From positions 1-39,954 of the IMG/VR virus record IMGVR_UViG_3300032321_000245: a DNA stretch of 39,954 nt; one strand, given 5' to 3'. Positions within the stretch are counted from its first letter, which is position 1. Every line of letters begins with the position of its first letter. The position numbers and the translations under genes are program-made. This document shows, one piece after another, positions 13,288 through 38,851 of the stretch. The notes beneath the pieces are model-generated. The model was not told where the DNA came from. It saw only the letters and a list, made by a program, of their open reading frames with translations, and did not search any database. The stretch is from a virus. Lineage: Duplodnaviria > Caudoviricetes.

Positions 13288-16200
13288 TTATCCCTTGCTC
13301 ATTGCTACAGTTGGAGTTGTGTATACATCATCAATTAAAGGTTTGATAATGCTTTGATATGCTTCGGTTAGTGGAGCATTGCCTGCTGCAAAGTTCTTGA
13401 GATACTCAAGTCCTTCATCACGTACCTTGTTAATAGTTTCTTCACCATTAAATTGTGAACGTATATTGGCATCTTCTAATACCATTAACATACGGTTAGT
13501 TAATGCTGTCATCTGAGAGATTTGCAAACGCTGACCTTTAGGTAATTTATCAAAGTACTTAGGATTATTAACCATCTGGTCTAGGTGATTAAAGCGTGTG
13601 ATTAACTCTTGGCGTGGAGTAATTGGATTAGTACCCAATTGAAGCGCCAATGCTGGATTAGCCTGCTTCATTGCAAATTTAATATCACGTGCCTGACGTA
13701 GTACCTCTGAACGATATGATGCACGATTGCGGTCTAGGTTATTAGGGTCATTAAACAATGCCTGAACCTGACGGTCTACATTATAGAAATCATTACGTGC
13801 ACGAACTGTTGCTACATCAAGAAGATAACGCTTTAATACTCCACCATTATCATTAAATGGATTAGTCTTTCCAGGAATAATATCGGCTGCTTCAAGATAC
13901 TTAACTACAGATGGGTCATACTTACCAATGTTTGGGGCAAATACCCAAGCAACATCTGGATAATCACGAAGTACTTCCGTGTTCTTCATGGTCCACAACT
14001 TAGTCTCTTTAGTATAAGAGATGGCTGCTTTAGCAGCCTTGTTGTTAGCACCAACTGTATAGATAAGTTTATCTGGATTAGACGCTGTAAACATTGATAC
14101 TGCTGTACCAATAGGGTCATCCATATAATAGCCATACTTAGAGTTCACATCAAGAACAGCACGAAGTATATCGCTAAACTCTTGACGGAAACTAAGAACG
14201 CCTACTCTACGTAGTTCGTTTGGAAAGTTAGGGTCATTAGTACTGAGCATTGTAGGTACAATAGTATTAAAACCAATTTTAACAGCAAGAGTATTATGTA
14301 CTGCGATACCTAAGCGGTCATAGTATTGCTGTACCTTTTCCGCATTTTCCCAGTCTTCTGGCTTCATTTTTGTGTTGCCAGAAATCTCTATGTTAGCGGC
14401 TGCTTGCATAAGTGTTGTAGCCTGAATACCAGTCTTATGTTCTGGGTCAAATTGTGCCCATGCGTTATTTAATAATACTGGAACTATTGAACGTGCCCAA
14501 GTAGTGTTATCTGAACCTGGACCAAGAACAATATTATCAATGTTATCAGCAAACTTAAGTATACCTTCGTTGTCTAATTCACGTCCCACTATATTAAACA
14601 TAGCCTTTACTGCAAGTGCAGGTATAGCAATGGTAGGACCAGTAAGTGATGGAACACCCGCTGCATCATTATATGATGGGTTAAGCAAAGATATTTTTGC
14701 ACTGTATTGATTCCACTGTGGCTGCTTAAAGAAGTCCCAATTACCACGTGCTAGATTAACTGCAGCCTTTACAGGGTCAGTTAATGCAGATAGTGCAGGG
14801 GCTACAAGCCCCCAGATAAGACCATCATTAGGAACCATTACATATTGATTACCCTTGTCATCTGTATACACAAGACCAGAACCTGACATTGATTGGCTCA
14901 AGTGACCTGTACGATAAATAACTTTATCAGGGTGTGCAATAATGTAACGTGAATAACGGCGAATATAATCTTCAGATGCGCGATAGAAACGTCCGACACC
15001 ACGTAGATTCCACGCCATTTGTGTGCGTACATCTGGGTTATCAGCATACTTCATTAGTTCATCAGCAGCATTGTGCGTAGCACGACTATCAAAGTATAAG
15101 TCAGCCTGCAATCTAGCAGCATCTGGGTCTACATCACGTGCAATAAGGTCTCTAACCATTTGCATTTCGTCAGGCTGCATCTTACTACGCTGTTGCATTA
15201 CCTTAATACCAAATGCATCAGCACGATATATGTCAGTAAGTTGCCTATCCATCTGCTTCCAGGGAATCTCGCCAAACTTCTTAAATGCACTTTCAGTGCT
15301 ATCAATTAGTCCAGGAAAATCATACTGAGTTTTTAACATACCTTGGATTGGGAAGTCTTTAACTAATACTTCAAAATCCGCATAAGGCATTTTGCTAATA
15401 TGATAAGAAGGAGACTTCATGCGTGCTTCATAAGCACGGCGAGCCTTCTCTGTATCAGCATTCTTAGGCAGTGGCTTACCTGCGTAGTCACGTAGGTACT
15501 CATCTGACTTTTGGAAGTTACTGCGCTTCTTAATCTTTTCAGCAGCATCATCTAATTTGCTTTTAACAGCGTCAAAGAGTGGACGATTAAATACTTCAGA
15601 TGAACCATGGAATACAACATAGAGTTCACCCATGCTTTTGCGTACAATTGCATCTGTAATCTGTGAAGAAGATTTACCTGCTGCACGTAAACCAAATGTC
15701 TGTCCAAAACGACCATTAAATCGTTTGATAGATGTTAGTAGTTGTTCAACCTTAATAACTTTTTCATAATCTGTACCAGGATTAAGAATCTTTTCTACAA
15801 CAGCCCATGAACCATCAGACTTTTTAGTCCAACCAATGAGTTCCATGATTTCATCTGTATAAGCAACACCATCAGCAGCGGTTTCAAGACCGTTATGCTT
15901 GATAAACAAAGAACCAAAGTCAATAACTGGACCGTATGATGTCTTAAATGTATTCTTACCAAAGTAACGGAAAAAAGCATCATAATGAACAGCAGTACGC
16001 TCTGATGTTGTTAGTAACATTTTTTCATCTGTAAGGTATGTTCCCATATCCTTACGACCCCACTCTTCAACAGCCTCTGTGAGTGGTGACTTGCCATACA
16101 TTTCAGCCTGTACTGAACCATCAACCATAGTATTACCAAATGAACGTGCTACTTGTGACTGCACCATACCTTCAACGGCATGTGAGTTGTTCATAAGATG

Positions 16201-18771
16201 AGTTGCTAACCAGCGTTGTTCTTGTTCAGACAACTTCCCAGCATATTTTGCAATAACCATAGCACTTAAACGCTCTTCGTACGTTCCACCAAAGTATTCA
16301 TCAGCAGAAACCAACTGTTGACGTTTAATAACTTTGCCGTTAGGCAAGGTATAACTAGCATCAACCATCTGAGGTTCTTGCATAGCACGGCGCATAGCAG
16401 GTGATACGTATTCTGCTGGGTTTTTACCAGCAACAGAAAGAAGTTTACTTTTTACAAGACCATAAGTTTCTGTACTACCACGATATGCAGCAACTGTGTT
16501 AGCAATTGCAGAGCCTTTGCCAGTCATAAAAGCAAAAATTGCAGTTGGATGTTGAGTTAATGCAGCAATTGTACCTTCATCAACAGCAGACTTAAGACCC
16601 AACTTAGGATATAGGGTTAACTTAGTCCAACCGTTCATAATCATCTGTGCCCAGGCAGCATTAGTCAACTCACCAATTCCAAAGTGACGGCGGAAGCCAG
16701 CATTTAATGTAACGTTGCTGTGTACCCATTCTGAAATTTCGTTAAAGTTAGGCATAGATACGCCTTCAGTGGTGTGCAGAATCTGACTTGGACCAGTTGG
16801 TACATCAATCATTCCATCAGAGATTAAATGCTTAGGCATTTGAATATCTGAGATAGGACCCATGCCCTTAATAGGGGCAAAGATAGATTCTAGCCATGCA
16901 CGTTGTACATCTAAACCTTTAACAGTTGAGGCTAACCCTAACTTGTCTGTATAAAGTTTAAACATAGAGAATAACATATTGATACGTTCTTCTGGTGAAA
17001 CACGTAGAAAGCGTTCAGTGAGCAAATTTGCTCGCAACTTATCGCCAACAATTACACGTGAGAAATCACGGAATGCTGCAGCAGATTTAACTACCATACC
17101 ATCTTCGGTATAAATCATAACATTAGTTGGATGCTTAGACATTGCACTATTGTAAGCACTCTGCAATCTATTACCATTAGCAGTAAGAGATTGAATTACT
17201 TCATTTTGCTTAGGGTCTACAAGTTGGAACTCAGGACGATTAGCAAAGTACTTATCAAATGCTTTTGCACTTTCTAATACTTCTTCTGGAATAGGTTCTT
17301 TACCAGCAGCAACACGGCGTCCAACGCCGTTAAAGACTTGGTCAAATGCTTCTTTAATACCTGTAGTAATTTTACGTGTAGAACGTTCAATGGCTACATG
17401 ATTCTCTGTGTAGTAATGCAATCCTTCTACACGACCAGAAATAATATAGTTCATGTATTCGCCTTGCTCAAAGAACTTAATCATTGTAGGCAAGTCTGTA
17501 ATAGGAACTAATTTTTCTTGGTCGTTAAGAACCTTAGTATTAACAAGGAGGTCAAGAACACCTTCATTGTCATACTTAGGATAATCACGAGCAATACGCA
17601 TACGGACAAGACCTGATTCAGCATCATTGGCTGTTTTACGTGCATTGCGTAGTGCAACAATTTCTTTTGCTAGTCCATCATGTAGTGATGACACTTGTGG
17701 GTCTGCAAATAAATCTATTACGCGAGTAGCGCTGTTATTTTTTCCAGCATTAACAAATGTTTCTGCAAGTTTTTCTGATTTAAGAGCAGCCTTAGTGCTA
17801 CCACCAGTAAACCAAGTTAATGGGTCAACTACAATTTGATAGGCAAAGTTAATTGTACCTGAAGGAGAAACATATTTTTCATCAGAAAATGGGTTAGGGT
17901 TAGAAATAACCCATTTATCAATTTCTTTAGACTTTTCAAATGCTCGATATGCATCAGCATCTGCAACACCAGTAAGTGAGCCAAGTACTGTAGGGACAAT
18001 TGCCCAAAGACTACCCTCTGATGGCGGGTGTTCTCTATTCATCCAGTTAGTAAAGTCGTTACCTGGGTTTACTTGACCAGCCTTGTGTTCCCCAAATGCT
18101 GTTTTCCAATCACTGCCATTCTCAGACATATTGCGAACAGCATTAATCATTGCATTATCTAGTGGACCGTACTCACGAATAATATCTCCTGGCTTTTTGC
18201 CATCAATAATTCCACGAATAAGATAACTCTTGGCTTTGCCATGTTTAATTTCAAGTTCTTCAAGCATCTTGCTATCCCACTGGTTATGCCCGTCCCAAGC
18301 ATCTGACCAAGTTTTTGTTGAAAGAAGTTTTTTAAAATCTCCAGATGTTGGTTTAGCATCATCTAAAACATTAGATGCAATCTTATATGGAAGATTAATA
18401 CCTTTGTAATAAAAATCAGCAACGTCAAATACCATACGAAATGGTTCAGTTACACCTTTAACAAGAGCAGTACCAATTTGTCCAAGAATACTTGGAGGTG
18501 CTTTTTGATAACCAGCACCTTCATTAATAAACATAAGACCTTGTTTAATTTGTGGCTCTAGTTTATTGTATGCTTTCCATGCTTTACCAGCATCAGTGAT
18601 ACGTGTAAGTTCACGGTCTTTGTTTAGGAGACGTTGAATGTTTTCTTGAATAGCACGTTCTTCTTGTGTTGGTTGTCCCGCAAGGGATGCCGCATACAGC
18701 GTTGGGTTTGCTGTTGCAAGAACGTTATTAACAGGCTGAGGTCTGGGCTGATTAGGATTTATCAGAGACAT
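13288..18771 (-). CDS. Large putative internal virion (ejection) protein
   Basis: 1827 aa, helical character, no tape-measure periodicity; size and context like podovirus core proteins. Confidence 0.65.
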   Translation of the reverse strand: MSLINPNQPRPQPVNNVLATANPTLYAASLAGQPTQEERAIQENIQRLLNKDRELTRITDAGKAWKAYNKLEPQIKQGLMFINEGAGYQKAPPSILGQIGTALVKGVTEPFRMVFDVADFYYKGINLPYKIASNVLDDAKPTSGDFKKLLSTKTWSDAWDGHNQWDSKMLEELEIKHGKAKSYLIRGIIDGKKPGDIIREYGPLDNAMINAVRNMSENGSDWKTAFGEHKAGQVNPGNDFTNWMNREHPPSEGSLWAIVPTVLGSLTGVADADAYRAFEKSKEIDKWVISNPNPFSDEKYVSPSGTINFAYQIVVDPLTWFTGGSTKAALKSEKLAETFVNAGKNNSATRVIDLFADPQVSSLHDGLAKEIVALRNARKTANDAESGLVRMRIARDYPKYDNEGVLDLLVNTKVLNDQEKLVPITDLPTMIKFFEQGEYMNYIISGRVEGLHYYTENHVAIERSTRKITTGIKEAFDQVFNGVGRRVAAGKEPIPEEVLESAKAFDKYFANRPEFQLVDPKQNEVIQSLTANGNRLQSAYNSAMSKHPTNVMIYTEDGMVVKSAAAFRDFSRVIVGDKLRANLLTERFLRVSPEERINMLFSMFKLYTDKLGLASTVKGLDVQRAWLESIFAPIKGMGPISDIQMPKHLISDGMIDVPTGPSQILHTTEGVSMPNFNEISEWVHSNVTLNAGFRRHFGIGELTNAAWAQMIMNGWTKLTLYPKLGLKSAVDEGTIAALTQHPTAIFAFMTGKGSAIANTVAAYRGSTETYGLVKSKLLSVAGKNPAEYVSPAMRRAMQEPQMVDASYTLPNGKVIKRQQLVSADEYFGGTYEERLSAMVIAKYAGKLSEQEQRWLATHLMNNSHAVEGMVQSQVARSFGNTMVDGSVQAEMYGKSPLTEAVEEWGRKDMGTYLTDEKMLLTTSERTAVHYDAFFRYFGKNTFKTSYGPVIDFGSLFIKHNGLETAADGVAYTDEIMELIGWTKKSDGSWAVVEKILNPGTDYEKVIKVEQLLTSIKRFNGRFGQTFGLRAAGKSSSQITDAIVRKSMGELYVVFHGSSEVFNRPLFDAVKSKLDDAAEKIKKRSNFQKSDEYLRDYAGKPLPKNADTEKARRAYEARMKSPSYHISKMPYADFEVLVKDFPIQGMLKTQYDFPGLIDSTESAFKKFGEIPWKQMDRQLTDIYRADAFGIKVMQQRSKMQPDEMQMVRDLIARDVDPDAARLQADLYFDSRATHNAADELMKYADNPDVRTQMAWNLRGVGRFYRASEDYIRRYSRYIIAHPDKVIYRTGHLSQSMSGSGLVYTDDKGNQYVMVPNDGLIWGLVAPALSALTDPVKAAVNLARGNWDFFKQPQWNQYSAKISLLNPSYNDAAGVPSLTGPTIAIPALAVKAMFNIVGRELDNEGILKFADNIDNIVLGPGSDNTTWARSIVPVLLNNAWAQFDPEHKTGIQATTLMQAAANIEISGNTKMKPEDWENAEKVQQYYDRLGIAVHNTLAVKIGFNTIVPTMLSTNDPNFPNELRRVGVLSFRQEFSDILRAVLDVNSKYGYYMDDPIGTAVSMFTASNPDKLIYTVGANNKAAKAAISYTKETKLWTMKNTEVLRDYPDVAWVFAPNIGKYDPSVVKYLEAADIIPGKTNPFNDNGGVLKRYLLDVATVRARNDFYNVDRQVQALFNDPNNLDRNRASYRSEVLRQARDIKFAMKQANPALALQLGTNPITPRQELITRFNHLDQMVNNPKYFDKLPKGQRLQISQMTALTNRMLMVLEDANIRSQFNGEETINKVRDEGLEYLKNFAAGNAPLTEAYQSIIKPLIDDVYTTPTVAMSKG

Positions 18772-21201: not shown

Positions 21202-23091
21202 CTATCCATATGTTTCGTGCCATTGGTCTGCAAAGGCATCATCTAAATTAACTGCATATCTTGTATTCATCTGTGCTTTAGTAGCCCAACGATTATTGAG
21301 ATACTTAGATGTGTTACTACTAGACTGCATAAGTTCGCGGATGCGAATAACTGCAAACCACAATGCCATAACAGTATCTGTCTTGCCTTTAGTGTTAGGC
21401 TTCCAAGTCAACAGTTGTTGAGTAAGAGCCTTTATACCTTCGCTGCCTTCAGAAGAAGGAAGTTCTATAATGTTGTTCTTTTGGAACTTTTCTTCTCGGA
21501 CCGTTCCAAACAGGTTAGACATTGACGCGACTCCAAAGGATGTGTCCCATTTGTTTTTGCCTGTGAAGTGAGCATCAAGGCGTACACCATATCCAGCAAG
21601 CCAGTTTCGTAACTCGTCATCAAGAGAGTAGGCTTTCTGATGAGCATTAATTTCAACTCGAAACTCTTGCGGTTTATATTTGATAACCAGTTCTTCAATA
21701 GTCGCCCTAATCTTTTGCGGTGTTGGTTCTGTCATGTTAATGCAATCGTTAATATAAATCTTGCCATCTGCACGATTGTATGTACAAACAACAAATGCAG
21801 CGTTACCTGCCATAGCAGGGTCAAATCCAATTACGACATAAGGTTCTATCTTTGGTGGATGTCCAGCAGCACCATCTTTTAGCGGTCCCCGCTTGCGCAT
21901 CCCATTGGTCGCTCCCTGCACGAGTACTGGCGGGAATATTGAGTCTTCCATGATGTCTTCTTGTTGGTAGACAAGTGCCCATGTTGAGGGGGTGACTTCA
22001 CTTCTTCGTCTGTTGAGGGTCTTGCCGTCCCACTTGGGGTAGAAGCCGTTTTCCTGAGGAGTGTCATCATCGCCATCCCACGGTACGTCCGACTCTTTCC
22101 AAAGCGTAACCCAGTCTTCTGGCTTCTCCGAATACTCCAGTACAGCAGGCATGCCCATATAAGTAAAGGGAGTCTTGCCACCTGACCAATGCTTCGGATT
22201 ACGAAGTTCTTTATATAAATCATTTGCTGCAATTCGTGTCCCTACGACTAGCAATTTACCGTTCTTACCCAGACGGGTAATAACTTCCTTCTGCAGCCAG
22301 TTAATCTGCTGTTCCCACTCATGAGCGTTGGCTGTAGTTATACAGTCGTCAAGAATAATTAAGTCGGCACGTGCGCCGTAAATCTGACCGCCCATACCTA
22401 GTGCCTGGATGGTTGGGTCTTTCTCAGATGAGTTACGCGCATCGCCCCCAAGATAGACGGTATCGGTACGCCAAGTATCTGCGTCCTGTTTCCAGCCGCC
22501 CTCTGGACCATATGCGGTCTGCAGTTTGAGCCAACGTGGATGGGACAATCGTTGCTTGATAGCGTATACGAACTCGCGTGCCTTAGTAATCGTCTTTGAT
22601 ACCACAATGATGCGGATGTTGGGATTGAGGGCAATGCGGTAAGTTGGATAGTTCACCGTGACAACGGTGGACTTAGCGTGCTCAGGGGGCACGTTGATTA
22701 GGAGGCGGTTAGACTCTCCTGGCTCATATATAATATTTTTGTGATTCCATGATGGCTCGCGTCCCTCCAGAAGGTCAATCCAGTTCTGGTGGTGAGGGAA
22801 GACCGTCTGGTCAAAAAACATCTTGGAGAACTCCGCAAATGGGATAGACTCCTTTTGAACACCGAGGGCATCAAAGGATTGTTTGCTTCCTTCTTCCTTA
22901 GCCTCTTCAAGTGCCGTTGCAAATAATGGGTCTCTGACCATCCACTGACGGATAGTATCTGGCTTTTTGCCTATGGCAATCATAGCCGCTTGAGGGGAGA
23001 CGCCCACCCTTACCTTCTCAAGAACTTGCTCCTTGGCTTGAGCCACACCCTTTGCTAAGTGGTGCTCGTTGCCAGATTTAAACCCAGCCAT
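21202..23091 (-). CDS. terL: Terminase large subunit with N-terminal HTH-like extension
   Basis: Walker A-like PPEHAKS, Walker B LIILDD, motif III VVGTR, nuclease IGFDPA and DTVMA. Confidence 0.92.
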   Translation of the reverse strand: MAGFKSGNEHHLAKGVAQAKEQVLEKVRVGVSPQAAMIAIGKKPDTIRQWMVRDPLFATALEEAKEEGSKQSFDALGVQKESIPFAEFSKMFFDQTVFPHHQNWIDLLEGREPSWNHKNIIYEPGESNRLLINVPPEHAKSTVVTVNYPTYRIALNPNIRIIVVSKTITKAREFVYAIKQRLSHPRWLKLQTAYGPEGGWKQDADTWRTDTVYLGGDARNSSEKDPTIQALGMGGQIYGARADLIILDDCITTANAHEWEQQINWLQKEVITRLGKNGKLLVVGTRIAANDLYKELRNPKHWSGGKTPFTYMGMPAVLEYSEKPEDWVTLWKESDVPWDGDDDTPQENGFYPKWDGKTLNRRRSEVTPSTWALVYQQEDIMEDSIFPPVLVQGATNGMRKRGPLKDGAAGHPPKIEPYVVIGFDPAMAGNAAFVVCTYNRADGKIYINDCINMTEPTPQKIRATIEELVIKYKPQEFRVEINAHQKAYSLDDELRNWLAGYGVRLDAHFTGKNKWDTSFGVASMSNLFGTVREEKFQKNNIIELPSSEGSEGIKALTQQLLTWKPNTKGKTDTVMALWFAVIRIRELMQSSSNTSKYLNNRWATKAQMNTRYAVNLDDAFADQWHETYG

Positions 23092-23139
23092 CCATCATCC
23101 CCTTGCTGAAGGCAGAGTTATCCCGCCGTATAGAAGTAT

Positions 23140-23500
23140 ATCTGTACAACAGTCTGTCACAGTAGAGGAAGGCTCTAAAAAGACTTCCTATTATATTTAC
23201 TGTACATATATACTTAATCCGTTCAAACAGGTCAAACGAACTGTTTGGTAGTAAATAGTTTATTATTTAATAGAAACAGATAGATAACTACCCTCCAGTC
23301 ACTATATACAGAAATATTTCTAAGTAGAGATACCTACATATACAGGCTGACAGATTAAAACACTAGGGGTCAGACTCCTAGATGTTCTAATCTGTACATA
23401 CAGTCACTACTGGACGCAGTCTGCATAGTGATACTGTCTGTCGGGCTGTCGCCCAATAATAGATAGATACTGACGATGGACCTATCAGTATATATATACA
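23140..23500. repeat. AT-rich cluster of inverted and short direct repeats; candidate packaging site, genome end or origin
   Basis: Inverted repeats at 23351-23394, 23401-23436 and 23467-23491; repeated CAGTCACTA, TA(C/T)ATACAG and AGATAGATA; immediately upstream of terL. Confidence 0.5.
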
Positions 23501-23504
23501 GCCT

Positions 23505-24160
23505 AATGCCGAACAGGTTCTTCATTCGGACTTCCTATGAACAGCGTCTGCAAGCAGTTCTGTTCAGCCTCGGCGTCTGCGCCTCACAATGTCGGGCGTC
23601 TGCACGCTACGCTAAGCAGGTCCCTCCTTGTTCGACTGCAGTTCCTCGGTCCGCTAAATGCGGAAGGAAGCCTCATTCATAACCAAGCAGTTCTTTGCTG
23701 TCCTTGCAAGCAAGGTGCAAAGCGTCTGCTGTTCTATGTGTTTATCTATCCCATATCGCATGGGAAAGACAAAACATCTATGGCTGAGATTGTGCTATTC
23801 CGCTTAGCCAATACGCACCAGCCACTCGTCTATGGGACTCGTGCCTGGCTGTCTAAGCGGGTTGTGTTCGCTCCAAGCGTTACGGTGCACAGCCCCTCCA
23901 CGCAATGCGCTCACCTAACACCACACACAGTCGGACGCACGCCACGGCTTTCGCTGGCTATCGCCAATATTGCTCAAGCCTACACTCGTAGCCTACCTCG
24001 CTCTGGCTCGGCTTCACGGCTACTCGCAAGCGTGCTGAACCTTACACCGCGCTGTCAAATCGGCATCAGCCGATTGTCGCCCTGACGTCTGGCTTTTCGC
24101 CAGACAGGGCAAGAGTGACAGCGGGATGTCGCGGTATCCCGACAGTATGTGCTGTTGATT
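23505..24160 (-). ncRNA. Candidate large structured non-coding RNA (~650 nt), family unrecognised
   Basis: GC-rich; near-continuous nested helices; G-U pairs, tandem GA, G(CUUG)C and GAAA loops favour the minus strand. Boundaries approximate; no expression evidence. Confidence 0.65.
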
Positions 24161-24181: not shown

Positions 24182-24580
24182 ATGAACGAAGTTACATACA
24201 CACAGGACTCACTCTCAATCACTAATGTATGTTCGGAGTGCATAGCACAGGAACAACTTTGTGTTGAGTGCGTAGAAACTGCAGACGCTCGCCTCACAAA
24301 CCTAGCGTATGAGGCGGCGTCCGAAGGTAACCTTATGTACAAGTCCCAATGGCTTGTGGATACAGAACCAAGCGGACACGACTGGACAGATAGGGAAGGT
24401 GAGTTCAAACTCCCTATCGTACTACTACAGGACGGTGGTGAACTTGATAATCTATGGGCACTTGATGACTACACACAGTCACAACGTGAGGTTATCTGCC
24501 AAGCATGTCACCTTGCTACACCTAAGATGTTCAACCAGTGCCAATCATGTGACAGCGTATTGGAACATAACGTCAGATAG
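24182..24580 (+). CDS. Early Cys-rich (four CxxC) protein
   Basis: CSEC, CVEC, CQAC, CQSC; GAAAGG RBS. Confidence 0.8.
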   Translation: MNEVTYTQDSLSITNVCSECIAQEQLCVECVETADARLTNLAYEAASEGNLMYKSQWLVDTEPSGHDWTDREGEFKLPIVLLQDGGELDNLWALDDYTQSQREVICQACHLATPKMFNQCQSCDSVLEHNVR

Positions 24581-24664: not shown

Positions 24665-25012
24665 ATGGAAATCAAGAACGAATATACAGTAACAGGTACA
24701 CTCAAGAATATCCGTACATTCACAGGTTCTAAGGGTACACTCGCAACAGGTTGGCTTGACCAACGCACATACTCACGTCTGCCAGATGGTACAGCAGACC
24801 GCGCAGTCTACGTAGTAGGTATGAATATCGTAGCACTAGATGATTCTACAGTGGGTGACCTTGTAGACCTTGACAAAGGACGTCAAGGTAATGAGCACAC
24901 ACAGCAAGTAACACTAAAGGGTCGCATGATTACACGCTTTGACCGCCGTGACATTCCTGAAAAGCGTGCACCTCAGTTACAGTTTGAGGTCTTTGAAGTA
25001 AGCGTAAACTAA
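24665..25012 (+). CDS. SSB-like OB-fold protein
   Basis: VTGTL...VTLKGRMITR...FEVFEV beta pattern; AAGGAG RBS; no acidic tail. Confidence 0.6.
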   Translation: MEIKNEYTVTGTLKNIRTFTGSKGTLATGWLDQRTYSRLPDGTADRAVYVVGMNIVALDDSTVGDLVDLDKGRQGNEHTQQVTLKGRMITRFDRRDIPEKRAPQLQFEVFEVSVN

Positions 25013-27530: not shown

Positions 27531-28536
27531 AGCATATCTAAGCAAGTCAGTAGAGAAGACACGTAAACAAGCATGGGTACAAGCAGGCACTGCGGTAAAC
27601 GCAGGGTCTGCATCAGAAGCAGCACGACAGGCTGGACTAGACTGGAATGTAATGCTTGCAGATATGGAAGCAATTGTTTCCAACAAAGTCAATGAGTATG
27701 AGACAGTGACTGACCACTATCCAGTACCTAAACGACAGGCTGTTATCAAACTTGGTAAAGAAAATACCAATGAAGTTATAGGTGTAGTCGGTGACAAGTA
27801 CAAGATTGTGCAGAACATGGAAGTGTTCTCTGCACTAGATACATTGGTTGACTCAGGTGATGCTCGTTATACAGCAGCAGGTGAGTACAACAATGGTGCA
27901 AACATCTGGATGGTAATGGAATTACCTATAGGTGTACAAGTAGCCAACGACCCACACGCTGCATTCTTATTGGTGCAGTCATCACATGATGGTTCATGTG
28001 CAGTACGCATACGTCCTATCATTGAGCGTTTATTCTGCGCTAATCAAATCAATCGCATCATCAAAGGTAAGCATAAGAACGCTTACACCTATGTTATGAA
28101 GCACACTACAAACTCTGAGTTGTCAGTCAATGACATTCGTAACATTACTCAGTTAACTTATGATTCTATTCAACAGTATGAAGTAGTAGCAGGTACGTTA
28201 CTAAAACGTAAGGTTGATGAGCGTCAAGTTAAAAACATCTTCAAGTCTGTATGGTCATTACCATCAGAAGTAGAAGATGCACCCGACCATCTATTATCAC
28301 AAGGTCAACGCCGTCAACGTACCATTGCACTTAATGGACGTGACTCAGCATGGAATATTTACAGCCAGTCACCTACACAGGAGAACATCAGAGGCACAGC
28401 CTTTGGTGCATGGCAAGCAGTCATTGAACATGCTGACCATTATGCTTCTGGTGGCTCTGACCGCCGTGCAATTGCCACCATCAGCGGACGTAATGACCGC
28501 ATCAAGGACAAAGCCCTTGACTTAATCCTCGCATAA
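27517..28536 (+). CDS. DUF932 family phage/plasmid protein
   Basis: AGLDWNV, YKIVQN, SSHDGS, RLFCANQ, GTAFGAWQAVIEHADH motifs. Confidence 0.88.
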   Translation: MQLSEAYLSKSVEKTRKQAWVQAGTAVNAGSASEAARQAGLDWNVMLADMEAIVSNKVNEYETVTDHYPVPKRQAVIKLGKENTNEVIGVVGDKYKIVQNMEVFSALDTLVDSGDARYTAAGEYNNGANIWMVMELPIGVQVANDPHAAFLLVQSSHDGSCAVRIRPIIERLFCANQINRIIKGKHKNAYTYVMKHTTNSELSVNDIRNITQLTYDSIQQYEVVAGTLLKRKVDERQVKNIFKSVWSLPSEVEDAPDHLLSQGQRRQRTIALNGRDSAWNIYSQSPTQENIRGTAFGAWQAVIEHADHYASGGSDRRAIATISGRNDRIKDKALDLILA

Positions 28537-28564
28537 CTTATATAATTAACTTCTTATTATATAA
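28517..28564 (+). promoter_or_regulatory. Housekeeping-sigma promoter overlapped by a palindromic operator-like site
   Basis: TTGACT (28517) - 18 nt - TATAAT (28541); inverted repeat CTTATATAAT...ATTATATAAG overlaps the -10 and start region. Confidence 0.65.
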
Positions 28565-32373: not shown

Positions 32374-32464
32374 TTGGTGCACAGCAAAACTTGATGATGA
32401 ATACTTAGAAGATGTTTGCCCTAAGTGTGACCAGATAGGTTACCTTATGGATATAAATGGATAA
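32357..32464 (+). CDS. Zinc-ribbon micro-protein (35 aa)
   Basis: MKVKCNWC...CPKCDQIGYL; AAGGAG RBS. Confidence 0.6.
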   Translation: MKVKCNWCTAKLDDEYLEDVCPKCDQIGYLMDING

Positions 32465-32834
32465 GCCAAGCATTGAAGAGTATCTTCATTACATAGGCGC
32501 AGCCACCCCAGCAATGGGTGGTGGCTGGCGCAAGATGAAGTGTCCATTTCATAACGACAGTCATGCATCAGCAGCAGTTAACTATGATAAGAATGCTTTT
32601 ATCTGCCACGGATGTGGCGTAAAGGGTGATGTATATTCCCTAATAATGTACAAAGAAGGTGGTGATTATCGTGAGGCTCTCAAGTTTGCAGCGTCAGTTC
32701 TTACTACAGGCAACACAGAGATACGCGAGCAAGATAGAACTCGCAAGGGATTATCTATTAAGCCGTCATCTCTCGGTAGAAGAGGCAAACACATTTCACT
32801 TGGGGGTGGTAGAAGACCCACTTCCAGGACATGA
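32457..32834 (+). CDS. Primase zinc-binding domain (CHC2) protein
   Basis: CPFHND...FICHGCG.KGD motif. Confidence 0.85.
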   Translation: MDKPSIEEYLHYIGAATPAMGGGWRKMKCPFHNDSHASAAVNYDKNAFICHGCGVKGDVYSLIMYKEGGDYREALKFAASVLTTGNTEIREQDRTRKGLSIKPSSLGRRGKHISLGGGRRPTSRT

Positions 32835-33306
32835 GGCGTACAAAGGACGCCTTGCTATTCCATACATTACACCATCAGGTGTAGTTGATATTAGATTCCG
32901 TGCAATGGGTAACGAAGACCCTAAGTATATGGGATTAGTTGGTGCTAAAACTACTATGTTTAACACACAGGCTTGCTTTGTAGCAGATAAATATATTTGC
33001 GTAACCGAAGGTGAGTTTGATTGTATTATGATGTCAGTTAAAACTATGCATCCAACTATAGGTATTCCAGGTGCTAACAATTGGAAGCCACATTACGCTA
33101 AGATACTAGATGACTTTGATGTTGTTATAGTTCTTGCTGACGGAGACCCAGCAGGTCTTGAGTTTGGCAAGAAGATTAGTAGAGAACTAGGTAATGTAAA
33201 CATTATCTCTATGCCAGATGGCGAAGACGTAAACAGCATGATGATAAAGATGGGGAGTGAATGGCTTGACGGACGAATCAAAGAATGTGTTACCCCTGGA
33301 CAGTAA
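32671..33306 (+). CDS. DNA primase TOPRIM domain protein
   Basis: RLAIPY, FRA...PKY, VTEGEFD, DGDPAG, DVN motifs; probable GTG start at 32671. Confidence 0.88.
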   Translation: MRLSSLQRQFLLQATQRYASKIELARDYLLSRHLSVEEANTFHLGVVEDPLPGHEAYKGRLAIPYITPSGVVDIRFRAMGNEDPKYMGLVGAKTTMFNTQACFVADKYICVTEGEFDCIMMSVKTMHPTIGIPGANNWKPHYAKILDDFDVVIVLADGDPAGLEFGKKISRELGNVNIISMPDGEDVNSMMIKMGSEWLDGRIKECVTPGQ

Positions 33307-36886: not shown

Positions 36887-38851
36887 TTATACCGTTCTGA
36901 TAGTTATGTTAATAACCCCACCAAAGCCATCAAAACGCTTATCAGGTGGTGTCATACGACTGAATGTAACTTGCTGTATTACTGCTTGCTGTGATTCTCC
37001 TGTTGTCAGGTCTTGCCAAGTCAGAACATCGCCTGTCTTTTCAATCTCTTCTAACAATTGTATACGAGCATATGCTCTGCCATCATAGCCAACTACAGTA
37101 TTAAATCTGTCAGTTTCTATATCAAAACAATAAACAGGGAACTGAATAATACGTTGACGTGGTGTAGCAATAGTTGCTTTAGCCTGATAACCTTTAAAGG
37201 TTGGACCAGTAGTAGTATCTGTAGTATCACGAGTAAGTGTAAACTTATATGCAAGAAACTCTTGGGCTAGTTCGGGTTGACTTGTTGTTACTTCTACTGC
37301 TGCTACATTTGAATTATAAGTAATATGGTCGTATTGTGTTTCATTACCATTTGCACCTGTAGCCAAAGATGAAGAAGTAAACTCACCAGATATAAATGTG
37401 CCACGAGCAACAAGACGTTTATAGTTTTTAGGTTCTAATGTAGAAAATCTAATCTTACCTGTAGTTATAGAACCAGATGATGCTAAAACTGTAGTTGACT
37501 GAATGGCTATGCCATTACTGCCTGATGTAGTAAAGGCTATCTGGTCTGTATTGCCTACAAAATCTACAGTAGTAGCATAACCAGTAGCAGTACTAAGATA
37601 AGCATCTTTAGCATAAGCAAAGCGCAATGATTCAATTTCTGAACCTAAGTCAATACGATATAAACCAGCACAATTATTAACTGTACCTGCAGCCCATACA
37701 AATCTATCGCGGAAAGCAAAGTCACGGACACCATTAGTATCTTCAAATAAAAGCGGACCATAAGATAAATCACCAGCAGTAGTAGCACCTTCTGAGATAC
37801 TAGCCACACGCATACCTTTATTAGTACCTATCATTAGGTAACCAAGATACGACTCAATCTTATAAACTATCTCACCAATGGGCAGTTGTGCTGCTACAAT
37901 CCCTGATGTCAGGGTAGGCATAGAACCGCCAGCAGATAGAACAAACTTGTAGATAGCAGAGTTACCGCCAAGGTAACCAGCGGCATAGATAGCAGAACCG
38001 CCTTCAGAAATAGATGACCAAACCCAATCCGCATTAGGATGTGTGTATATAGGTGTAGGCAAGGCACGTGATGTGCCTTTAGTACCAGTTAATTCATAAA
38101 CACTAGGTCCAACACAAGCAACCAAACGTTGCTTTGCCCAAGCAAGAGTTACTCGTTCACTGCCAGTTGCATAATATTCTGTGTACCCAGATGTAGGTGT
38201 TGCAATTTCTCCTGAATAAATATGGTCGTTGTCAGCAACGAACAAGTGTGCTCCATCAGTTGCAATTGCTAGTGTAGCCGTATCTAATCCAGCAGTAACT
38301 ACGTGTGTGTAAGCAACAGCAGTACCACTAGCAGTGTAATTATTAATAGTTGTATTTGCTGGTGTCCAAGCAACAAGTTTATTAGTTGAGCCATCTACAA
38401 CAGAGATAAGTTTATAAACACCAGTTGTAACACCAGTCATATTGGCTGTCTCTTTAAGAAGAGTAACCTGTCCCTTAGTCCATACATCTACATTGTCTGA
38501 GTCAGTAAAGCGATGAGCAACTGATTCACCTGCAGATGGGTCATAAAACTTAATACCTGTGCCATTATGAAAAGAAGACTGACTTCTTAGCCACCAACCA
38601 GTAAGTGATTGCTCACCTGGTTCTGTCCCAATATCTGATTGGTCTTTACTAAATGGTGCAGTCTGACGAATGTATGGTCTAGTATCATTGATAGCATAAA
38701 AGAATGGCAAGCCACCTACTGCTACATCATATGCTTCATTAGTATTTTGCCAAGTAGAAGTAGATGAAACAATACCTAAATCAATAGCAATAGCACGACC
38801 AATGCTGGCAGTTGCGGAGCCTCTACCTTCGGTTATATCTCTTGTTGCCAC
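36887..38851 (-). CDS. Putative tail nozzle / tail tubular protein B-like
   Basis: 654 aa, beta-rich propeller-like character; AAGGAG RBS with GTG start. Confidence 0.6.
   Translation of the reverse strand: MATRDITEGRGSATASIGRAIAIDLGIVSSTSTWQNTNEAYDVAVGGLPFFYAINDTRPYIRQTAPFSKDQSDIGTEPGEQSLTGWWLRSQSSFHNGTGIKFYDPSAGESVAHRFTDSDNVDVWTKGQVTLLKETANMTGVTTGVYKLISVVDGSTNKLVAWTPANTTINNYTASGTAVAYTHVVTAGLDTATLAIATDGAHLFVADNDHIYSGEIATPTSGYTEYYATGSERVTLAWAKQRLVACVGPSVYELTGTKGTSRALPTPIYTHPNADWVWSSISEGGSAIYAAGYLGGNSAIYKFVLSAGGSMPTLTSGIVAAQLPIGEIVYKIESYLGYLMIGTNKGMRVASISEGATTAGDLSYGPLLFEDTNGVRDFAFRDRFVWAAGTVNNCAGLYRIDLGSEIESLRFAYAKDAYLSTATGYATTVDFVGNTDQIAFTTSGSNGIAIQSTTVLASSGSITTGKIRFSTLEPKNYKRLVARGTFISGEFTSSSLATGANGNETQYDHITYNSNVAAVEVTTSQPELAQEFLAYKFTLTRDTTDTTTGPTFKGYQAKATIATPRQRIIQFPVYCFDIETDRFNTVVGYDGRAYARIQLLEEIEKTGDVLTWQDLTTGESQQAVIQQVTFSRMTPPDKRFDGFGGVINITIRTV

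Follow-up and report, generated by a model that had tools for sequence, protein, structure and literature searches.

A mosaic, strand-specific fold between the terminase and first early genes of freshwater actinophages: a possible single-stranded DNA promoter

The window analysed here, i.e., the whole stretch of 39,954 bp, is a complete virus record. A PHROGs scan of its 48 ORFs placed the terminase, portal and capsid genes on the minus strand and genes for a helicase, a primase, an exonuclease, a sigma-like factor and WhiB on the plus strand. Judged by terL, the nearest isolates are the Planktophila phages E7 and F5 (62–63% identity), and the terminases of the cluster BF Streptomyces podoviruses share 42% identity with that of the window; with these as the nearest terminases, the window phage is most likely a freshwater actinophage. 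The primase is split across two overlapping plus-strand frames (32457–32834 and 32659–33306), each with a primase match, and passages of PMC13097060 mention a split primase for the actinophage clusters A, BD, and BE2. The middle replication genes are preceded by a near-consensus promoter, TTGACT-18-TATAAT (28517–28546, plus strand). The virion gene block includes a 1827-aa protein (13288–18771, minus strand) without PHROG or Pfam match, which is possibly an ejection protein.

The spacer that holds the element is the divergence point of the genome, with early genes running from 24182 onward on the plus strand and late genes from 23091 downward on the minus strand. The first late gene is terL, encoding the terminase large subunit (21202–23091, minus strand), as recognized by the PHROGs scan and the terL comparison. 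The first early gene (24182–24580, plus strand) encodes a cysteine-rich protein of 132 aa that fell into no family in the ORF and family scan. The second (24665–25012, plus strand) encodes a protein with a predicted SSB-like OB fold (model pLDDT 91.8), whose top PDB matches are SSBs (E 3.7e-6). Between terL and the predicted genome end discussed below, positions 23100–23330 are AT-rich and strongly conserved, carry CAGAC/GACAG repeats and palindromes, fold with a z of about −5, and likely hold packaging or late-promoter signals. The window contains no tRNA genes; a tRNA-Arg (L043:3908–3980) and a tRNA-Trp (L055:462–533) lie just upstream of terL in two of 15 related loci scanned.

The original prediction described a structured non-coding RNA of about 650 nt on the minus strand (23505–24160), and all helix halves that it named were found on that strand in their places: the closing helix of domain (a), CGCTGTCA at 24123 with TGACAGCG at 24057; the arm helix of domain (d), CCGCTTAG at 23860 with CTAAGCGG at 23807; and the closing helices of domain (e), AGCCA at 23785 with TGGTT at 23685, and domain (f), GGCTTCCT at 23672 with AGGAAGTC at 23536. 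The four CGAG/CGAG tandem G-A motifs were also recovered as four such loops in the predicted fold, CGAG being present eight times. Helices (e) and (f) appear in one predicted fold and are closed differently in another; thus, the 3′ half of the element has alternative pairings. Folded as RNA, the minus strand reaches −272.5 kcal/mol (z −4.70, with none of 20 shuffles equally stable) and the plus strand −238.3 kcal/mol (z −4.22), while DNA parameters give z-scores of −8.0 and −6.75, respectively. Among 171 segments of 220 nt scanned (to position 37804), the three covering the element are the top three in stability, yet its z-score is not unique, as two flanking spacer segments (−5.1 and −5.25) and one coding segment (−5.9) score lower. 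The element is indeed GC-rich (about 51–54% against about 36–50% elsewhere in the window). A search with Rfam models returned no family at the cut-off and three chance-level matches at E up to 10, nothing reached the cut-off in 20 related loci either, and BLAST against 50,697 phage records gave one chance match of 22 nt. The plus-strand ORF of 182 aa is rejected as a gene, being frameshifted or stopped in five of the six matching relatives; the sixth has only residues 1–68 in common.

Read along the minus strand, the element begins with the 5′ arm of what we call the core hairpin (24116–24160), which ends in TGTCA (24120–24116), pairs with a probability of 0.98 in the predicted folds and would template the leader of the first early gene. 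Within the hairpin loop sits the three-way junction of domain (a) (24050–24123), swapped as a unit between phages, to judge from the ends of the relatives' matches. The 3′ arm carries the −35-like hexamer TTGACA (24053–24058), paired in the predicted folds, followed after 8 nt by TAAGGT (24039–24044), a TANNNT hexamer whose second and third bases are predicted to be unpaired. The promoter scan picked out the −10-like hexamer CACGCT (24029–24034), which stands at the canonical 18-nt spacing and, on duplex DNA, would direct transcription in the late direction, starting at about 24022. Domains (b) and (c) (23915–24036) fold into a branch with tandem G-A pairs and GCGAAAGC, then an outer stem that re-pairs the 5′ arm; this part is common to relatives L046, L041, L142, and L136. 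Domain (d) (23800–23860) is an arm with a single tandem G-A in the folds, and domain (e) (23681–23785) is a junction with a CTTG-capped arm and, by comparison with relatives, swap points near 23773 and 23735. Domain (f) and the last hairpin (23511–23672) consist, by alignment and helix check, of arms repeating one internal-loop unit, made of GCAGACGC and GA(A/C)CTGC in four copies each from 23729 to 23544, and three relatives have one additional copy of the repeated arm.

To place the element among its relatives, we took the best 80 of 271 terL loci plus loci from further searches. An anchor and an early ORF were present in 159 loci, of which 91 remained after removal of near-duplicates; seven of these spacers were left out for wrong start assignment, giving 84, i.e., 57 long (variable part of 330 nt or more) and 27 short. 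In these freshwater actinophage relatives, 84 in all, the spacer separating terL from the first early gene measures 115 to 970 nt, and 27 have the short form only. Folding was run on alternate long spacers (29 of 57), with eight shuffles each. Their late-strand z-scores run from −2.7 to −12.4 with a median of −6.5, the early-strand median is −6.2, and energy is lower on the late strand in 27 of the 29. Only two relatives, L046 and L136, match the element from end to end. The others have single modules in common with it: 24120–24053 alone, 24058 onward, or 23773 or 23735 onward. Matches to domain (a) start at 24120 and stop at 24053–24054, a swap that coincides with the TGTCA/TGACA helix; modules are exchanged at helix ends. 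One recurrent hairpin motif is linked to this group of phages: 32 of its 38 matches lie near terL. A loose pattern scan of metagenomes found terL in none of its loci, and a 16-mer search found it in nine of 43, the other 34 being taken as chance, including L132, L138, and L153 with matches of 20–26 nt.

By these comparisons, the element is this phage's version of a mosaic spacer and not one conserved RNA of 650 nt. ROOL, GOLLD, and OLE RNAs, as portrayed in parts of PMC12286853, are of similar size, rich in junctions and phage-associated, and the size, nested junctions, z-score and phage context of the element would suit a discrete ornate RNA of that class. Yet, the architecture of those RNAs is conserved and tRNAs are often close by, whereas the element is a length-variable mosaic outside Rfam, weakened as a single RNA by its module swaps, in a window free of tRNAs and without a promoter-like minus-strand site upstream of 24160 within the scanned region. 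The ROOL model did match on a known plasmid, our positive control, and the GOLLD search, run without such a control, gave no match in 35 records. With the loops described below lacking RNA-type selection and the fold containing the promoter elements themselves, we regard a ROOL/GOLLD/OLE-class RNA as very unlikely. What stands of the original prediction is a selected, strand-specific, non-coding fold outside Rfam; what falls is the discrete 650-nt RNA. Its alternative, an ssDNA structure, was rightly named and is now the favoured reading.

The pairing itself is seen in homologues. Compensatory changes occur at 11 of the 29 pairs of domain (a), for which 11 distinct sequences were available. 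Its covariation score exceeds those of all 500 shuffles, and 97% of cells are paired, compared with 28–40% when the partners are slid. In the 3′ domains compensatory change affects seven of 84 pairs among nine sequences too alike for a good test.

We then considered whether the loops are those of RNA or of DNA. In predicted folds, GNRA and UNCG loops together make up five of 303 loops in long spacers, compared with eight of 66 in E. coli rRNA, none of eight in one ROOL RNA and one of 95 in terL coding DNA. In a model-free count, the GNRA:GNYA ratio is 10:19 in the spacers and 16:4 in six control RNAs (p 0.003, although the spacers are related and p values of loop counts therefore overstate the evidence), and UNCG is found 0 times in 36 kb of spacers vs. 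four times in 5.8 kb of control RNA. The commonest loop is CTTG, with TTTA, GNA and GNYA loops also present. The same model-free count yields 94 loops closed by G and A on the late strand vs. 29 on the early strand. Pointing away from DNA, GNRNA loops exceed GNYNA loops, 23 to 13, a GNRA loop persists in arm (c) of L136, and the ROOL RNA likewise shows no GNRA or UNCG loops. We do not argue from two-base loops (52 of 212), whose share is, by estimate, close to chance. In DNA, stable motifs include GNA and GNYA loops as well as pyrimidine-GA-purine tandems; tandem G-A pairs, G(CUUG)C and GNRNA loops are found in RNA too. Overall, these loops favour DNA over RNA. Passages of PMC5737381, whose supplements list further motifs, present the computational distinction between ssDNA and RNA motifs as hard.

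The most widespread part of the spacer is the core hairpin. Short spacers retain it as a single TGTCAA...TTGACA hairpin, and a paired TTGAC-like hexamer is found in 72 of the 84 spacers, a few of them mis-assigned. In 56 distinct hairpins, about five of which are assigned to a neighbouring helix, the 5′ arm lies 53–82 nt from the first early ATG (61 nt in the window). The boxes are strongly asymmetric: in the predicted folds a −10-like hexamer stands on the 3′ arm in 38 of the 56 hairpins (25 at 16–18 nt and 22 at 6–8 nt), while two of the 56 have one on the early duplex strand, and TANNNT at 6–8 nt occurs 28 times on the late strand vs. three times on the early strand in the 84 spacers. The short-spacing type has eight different hexamers, all of which retain the T, the A and the last T. 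Rows of the canonical-spacing type have the −35 paired and the −11 A open in eight of the 10 shown; in the window's type this A is open in three of 17, the window being one of the three. Of the 10 canonical-spacing spacers, nine are of the type in which the first gene product is predicted to adopt an SSB-like fold. The two SSB-like families, exemplified by L008:2644–3033 (minus strand) and window 24665–25012 (plus strand), occur as first or second early genes, and comparison of their profiles revealed no likeness. Most short spacers lack a −10 at both spacings. Short spacers (e.g., L007, L013, L062, and L075) have different first genes, with N-termini MFRLL.TGSR or MKVVRVVNG, and carry a small near-perfect palindrome ahead of the ribosome-binding site; the MFRLL.TGSR product presumably resembles a YspA/SLOG-type protein. 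WhiA binding as the cause of the short spacing was dropped, since WhiA and WhiB are placed upstream of the −35 in the relevant sections of PMC10243135.

TTGACA-like hexamers are present on both hairpin arms in opposing directions, and BF phages carry TGTCAA two to three times at this end. Both facts would fit a by-product of inverted duplex protein sites, such as back-to-back promoters or terminase iterons, combined with local duplication, in which no folded state is used. We consider this scarcely probable, as it leaves aside the compensatory changes in the inner arms, the strand-specific G..A loops and tandem G-A pairs, and the swap points at helix ends.

The more serious competitor, possible if doubtful, is a non-coding, structured RNA of some 520 nt, made in the late direction from the TTGACA/CACGCT promoter (from about 24022 to about 23505). 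It could act as a protein sponge through its repeated internal-loop unit, as a leader of the late operon after end joining, or as a primer or pause signal for duplication of the terminal repeat. Its best argument is the canonical late-direction duplex promoter, found in 43 of the 57 long spacers and four of the 27 short ones; such an excess is expected if the promoter serves transcription of the long domains, and thus counts against a DNA promoter. Invariant unpaired bases in the multiway junctions, the motifs shared with RNA, and an A/T-rich tract that follows the last hairpin in many relatives point the same way. One RNA run holds four 151-nt pieces of depth 3–7 on the element, from strandless contigs that are possibly DNA. 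Each RNA run holds 5–6% of the words, with patchy coverage of the element at low depth, and as assembled contigs show neither strand nor level, absence from RNA runs was not counted as evidence. Against such a late RNA, there is no preference for GNRA or UNCG loops, overall architecture and length are not conserved, and its start lies downstream of both the 5′ arm and the covarying, folded domain (a). In 37 spacers, the set of loop and tandem motifs is found upstream as well as downstream of that putative start; the fold therefore spans sequence that an RNA from that promoter could not contain.

The spacer also appears to hold the end of the genome. In cluster BF, terminal repeats of 253–276 bp lie in this very spacer, according to passages in PMC9753666 and PMC13097060. 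The motif GACCC...TTAA starts 40 bp inside the right end in three of four BF phages, the fourth having a variant missed by the pattern, and is present in 88 of 91 spacers; in the window it occupies 23355–23372 (minus strand), which puts the predicted end 40 nt further on, at about 23332. The junction GT/A stands at exactly +40 from the motif in 53 of the 54 rows shown. In a virome run that is probably DNA, one contig of depth 3.7 terminates at 23331 and has no loose end, an observation made after the prediction. Contig ends of the fetched viral loci, most of them set by the fetch flank, form no pile-up at the predicted end, and the strict motif pattern has no match in E7 and F5, where a variant is visible. 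A physical end near 23332 is thus predicted from terminases of 42% identity, one motif and one contig of depth 3.7. The conserved AT-richer segment at 23332–23500 (minus strand, inner boundary approximate) would, by analogy with cluster BF, be the terminal repeat. Whether the element acts as DNA or as RNA, the motif and its spacing would provide a rule for locating the genome ends of these phages from sequence. Given an end at about 23332, the folded strand would be the 3′-ending strand there, besides being the template of the early genes. A 3′-ending strand is the one bared by resection or by incomplete lagging-strand synthesis.

The explanation that we prefer, with a chance that we place a little short of even, is that the terminal ssDNA fold is a Frpo-like promoter for the first early genes combined with a protective, variable cap. 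It builds on position, fold, covariation, mosaicism, box asymmetry and SSB-like predicted folds as observed; genome end, single-stranded state, use by a polymerase and cap role are what we infer. Flanked by the first early gene and terL, the element folds best on its minus strand, which is the early template. The virion DNA would end near 23332, as in cluster BF, with the minus strand carrying the 3′ end, and this strand would be bared by 5′–3′ resection after entry or by lagging-strand synthesis. The 5′ arm would then pair with the 3′ arm, the source of TTGACA and a −10 hexamer, and host RNA polymerase would copy the 5′ arm into the first early genes, including the SSB-like one, or lay a primer. 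The 500 nt of swappable branches may resist nucleases or decoy host DNA sensors, a role that could account for their rapid turnover. Once the end is duplex again, the hairpin promoter would be off and the same hexamers would face terL. The core hairpin in most spacers, short ones included, counts in favour of this DNA promoter. Against it count the window's type, with its TANNNT 6–8 and not 17 nt from TTGACA and its −11 A open in so few rows, the many short spacers lacking a −10, the failure to find a late-strand fold in BF phages, and the fact that tailed phages inject duplex DNA.

Hairpins might instead be extruded from the duplex, as a supercoiled cruciform helped by SSB, to serve as an N4-like promoter or as a nicking or priming site for copying the terminal repeat in packaging. 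Both strands of the 29 long spacers folded do beat their shuffles, with the medians given above, and the element adjoins the predicted terminal repeat; a hairpin also sits beside the terminal repeat of T7, for which our literature search on the T7 terminal hairpin found no paper. N4, a duplex podovirus with terminal repeats, reads its early promoters as hairpins of 4–5 bp on the template strand with a virion RNA polymerase, as described in parts of PMC3715699. The likeness lies in a template-strand hairpin for the earliest genes, yet the boxes here are of the sigma-A type and the fold spans hundreds of bases. Mismatch-rich branched stems of 100–200 nt would presumably extrude poorly, the stabilising motifs are confined to one strand, and no virion RNA polymerase was seen, the 1827-aa virion protein being without a family match. 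We therefore hold extrusion to be improbable.

The single-stranded promoter reading is closest in layout to Frpo, a stem-loop in which one strand alone re-forms the −35 and −10 boxes, ahead of first-expressed genes, including ssb (described in passages of PMC9849209 and PMC11541004). Likewise, predicted folds rebuild both boxes on the 3′ arm (38/56) and almost never on the early strand (2/56), on the template strand and before SSB-like early genes, whose first expression would follow from genome layout; the likeness is clearest in canonical-spacing spacers, with both boxes paired to the 5′ arm. In contrast to Frpo, the window has TAAGGT 8 nt from TTGACA, and CACGCT, at 18 nt, pairs within a branch; the carrier is a tailed duplex-DNA phage without known ssDNA entry, and 500 nt of variable branches are added. 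Streptomyces telomeres, as outlined in parts of PMC7205883, are ssDNA stem-loops with CTTG or GNA caps, nuclease-resistant and exchanged fast between strains; they measure about 160 nt, sit at the very end and need terminal proteins. The element shares CTTG- and GNA-capped stem-loops on what would be the 3′-ending strand, but the genome here is packaged by a terminase, and the fold contains promoter boxes and begins about 170 nt inward of the predicted end; the 48 ORFs scanned against PHROGs include terminase and portal and no Tap or Tpg terminal-protein genes. Cluster BF phages (Beephvirinae) have the same divergent layout, the end motif and terminal repeats in this spacer. Their non-coding end of 1.1–1.5 kb, in contrast, repeats TGTCAA and folds best, if at all, on the early strand, and no late-strand fold comparable to the element was found in them. 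E7 and F5, which like the window encode WhiB, a sigma factor and a glycosyltransferase (passages of PMC10202952), differ on sequence inspection by a short AT-rich spacer with an ordinary-looking early promoter and without a long GC-rich fold. The element would work like Frpo and like the Streptomyces telomere, yet departs from each of them, and from ROOL, GOLLD, and OLE, in a defining feature.

Our literature search, which covered few subscription papers, found no description of the element. Promoters on single-stranded DNA have precedents in conjugative plasmids and, in the form of tiny hairpins, in N4. Taken furthest, and only tentatively, the early duplex end in this large family of lake actinophages may turn single-stranded and fold into a modular DNA of several hundred bases, whose promoter would fire only while the end is chewed or unreplicated and whose shuffled, aptamer-like arms would be turned against host sensors and nucleases. 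If the late RNA holds instead, the spacers would define an undescribed modular family of phage RNAs. The phages concerned likely infect the most abundant freshwater bacteria, a host group for which cultured members and phages now exist, as reported in parts of PMC10202952. If the DNA reading is true, nature would have supplied in these spacers a library of branched ssDNA folds whose arms can be swapped, and so large a folded end in a common duplex phage would revise the picture of the first minutes of infection: a tailed phage would carry a natural branched ssDNA device linking host attack on its end to early expression.
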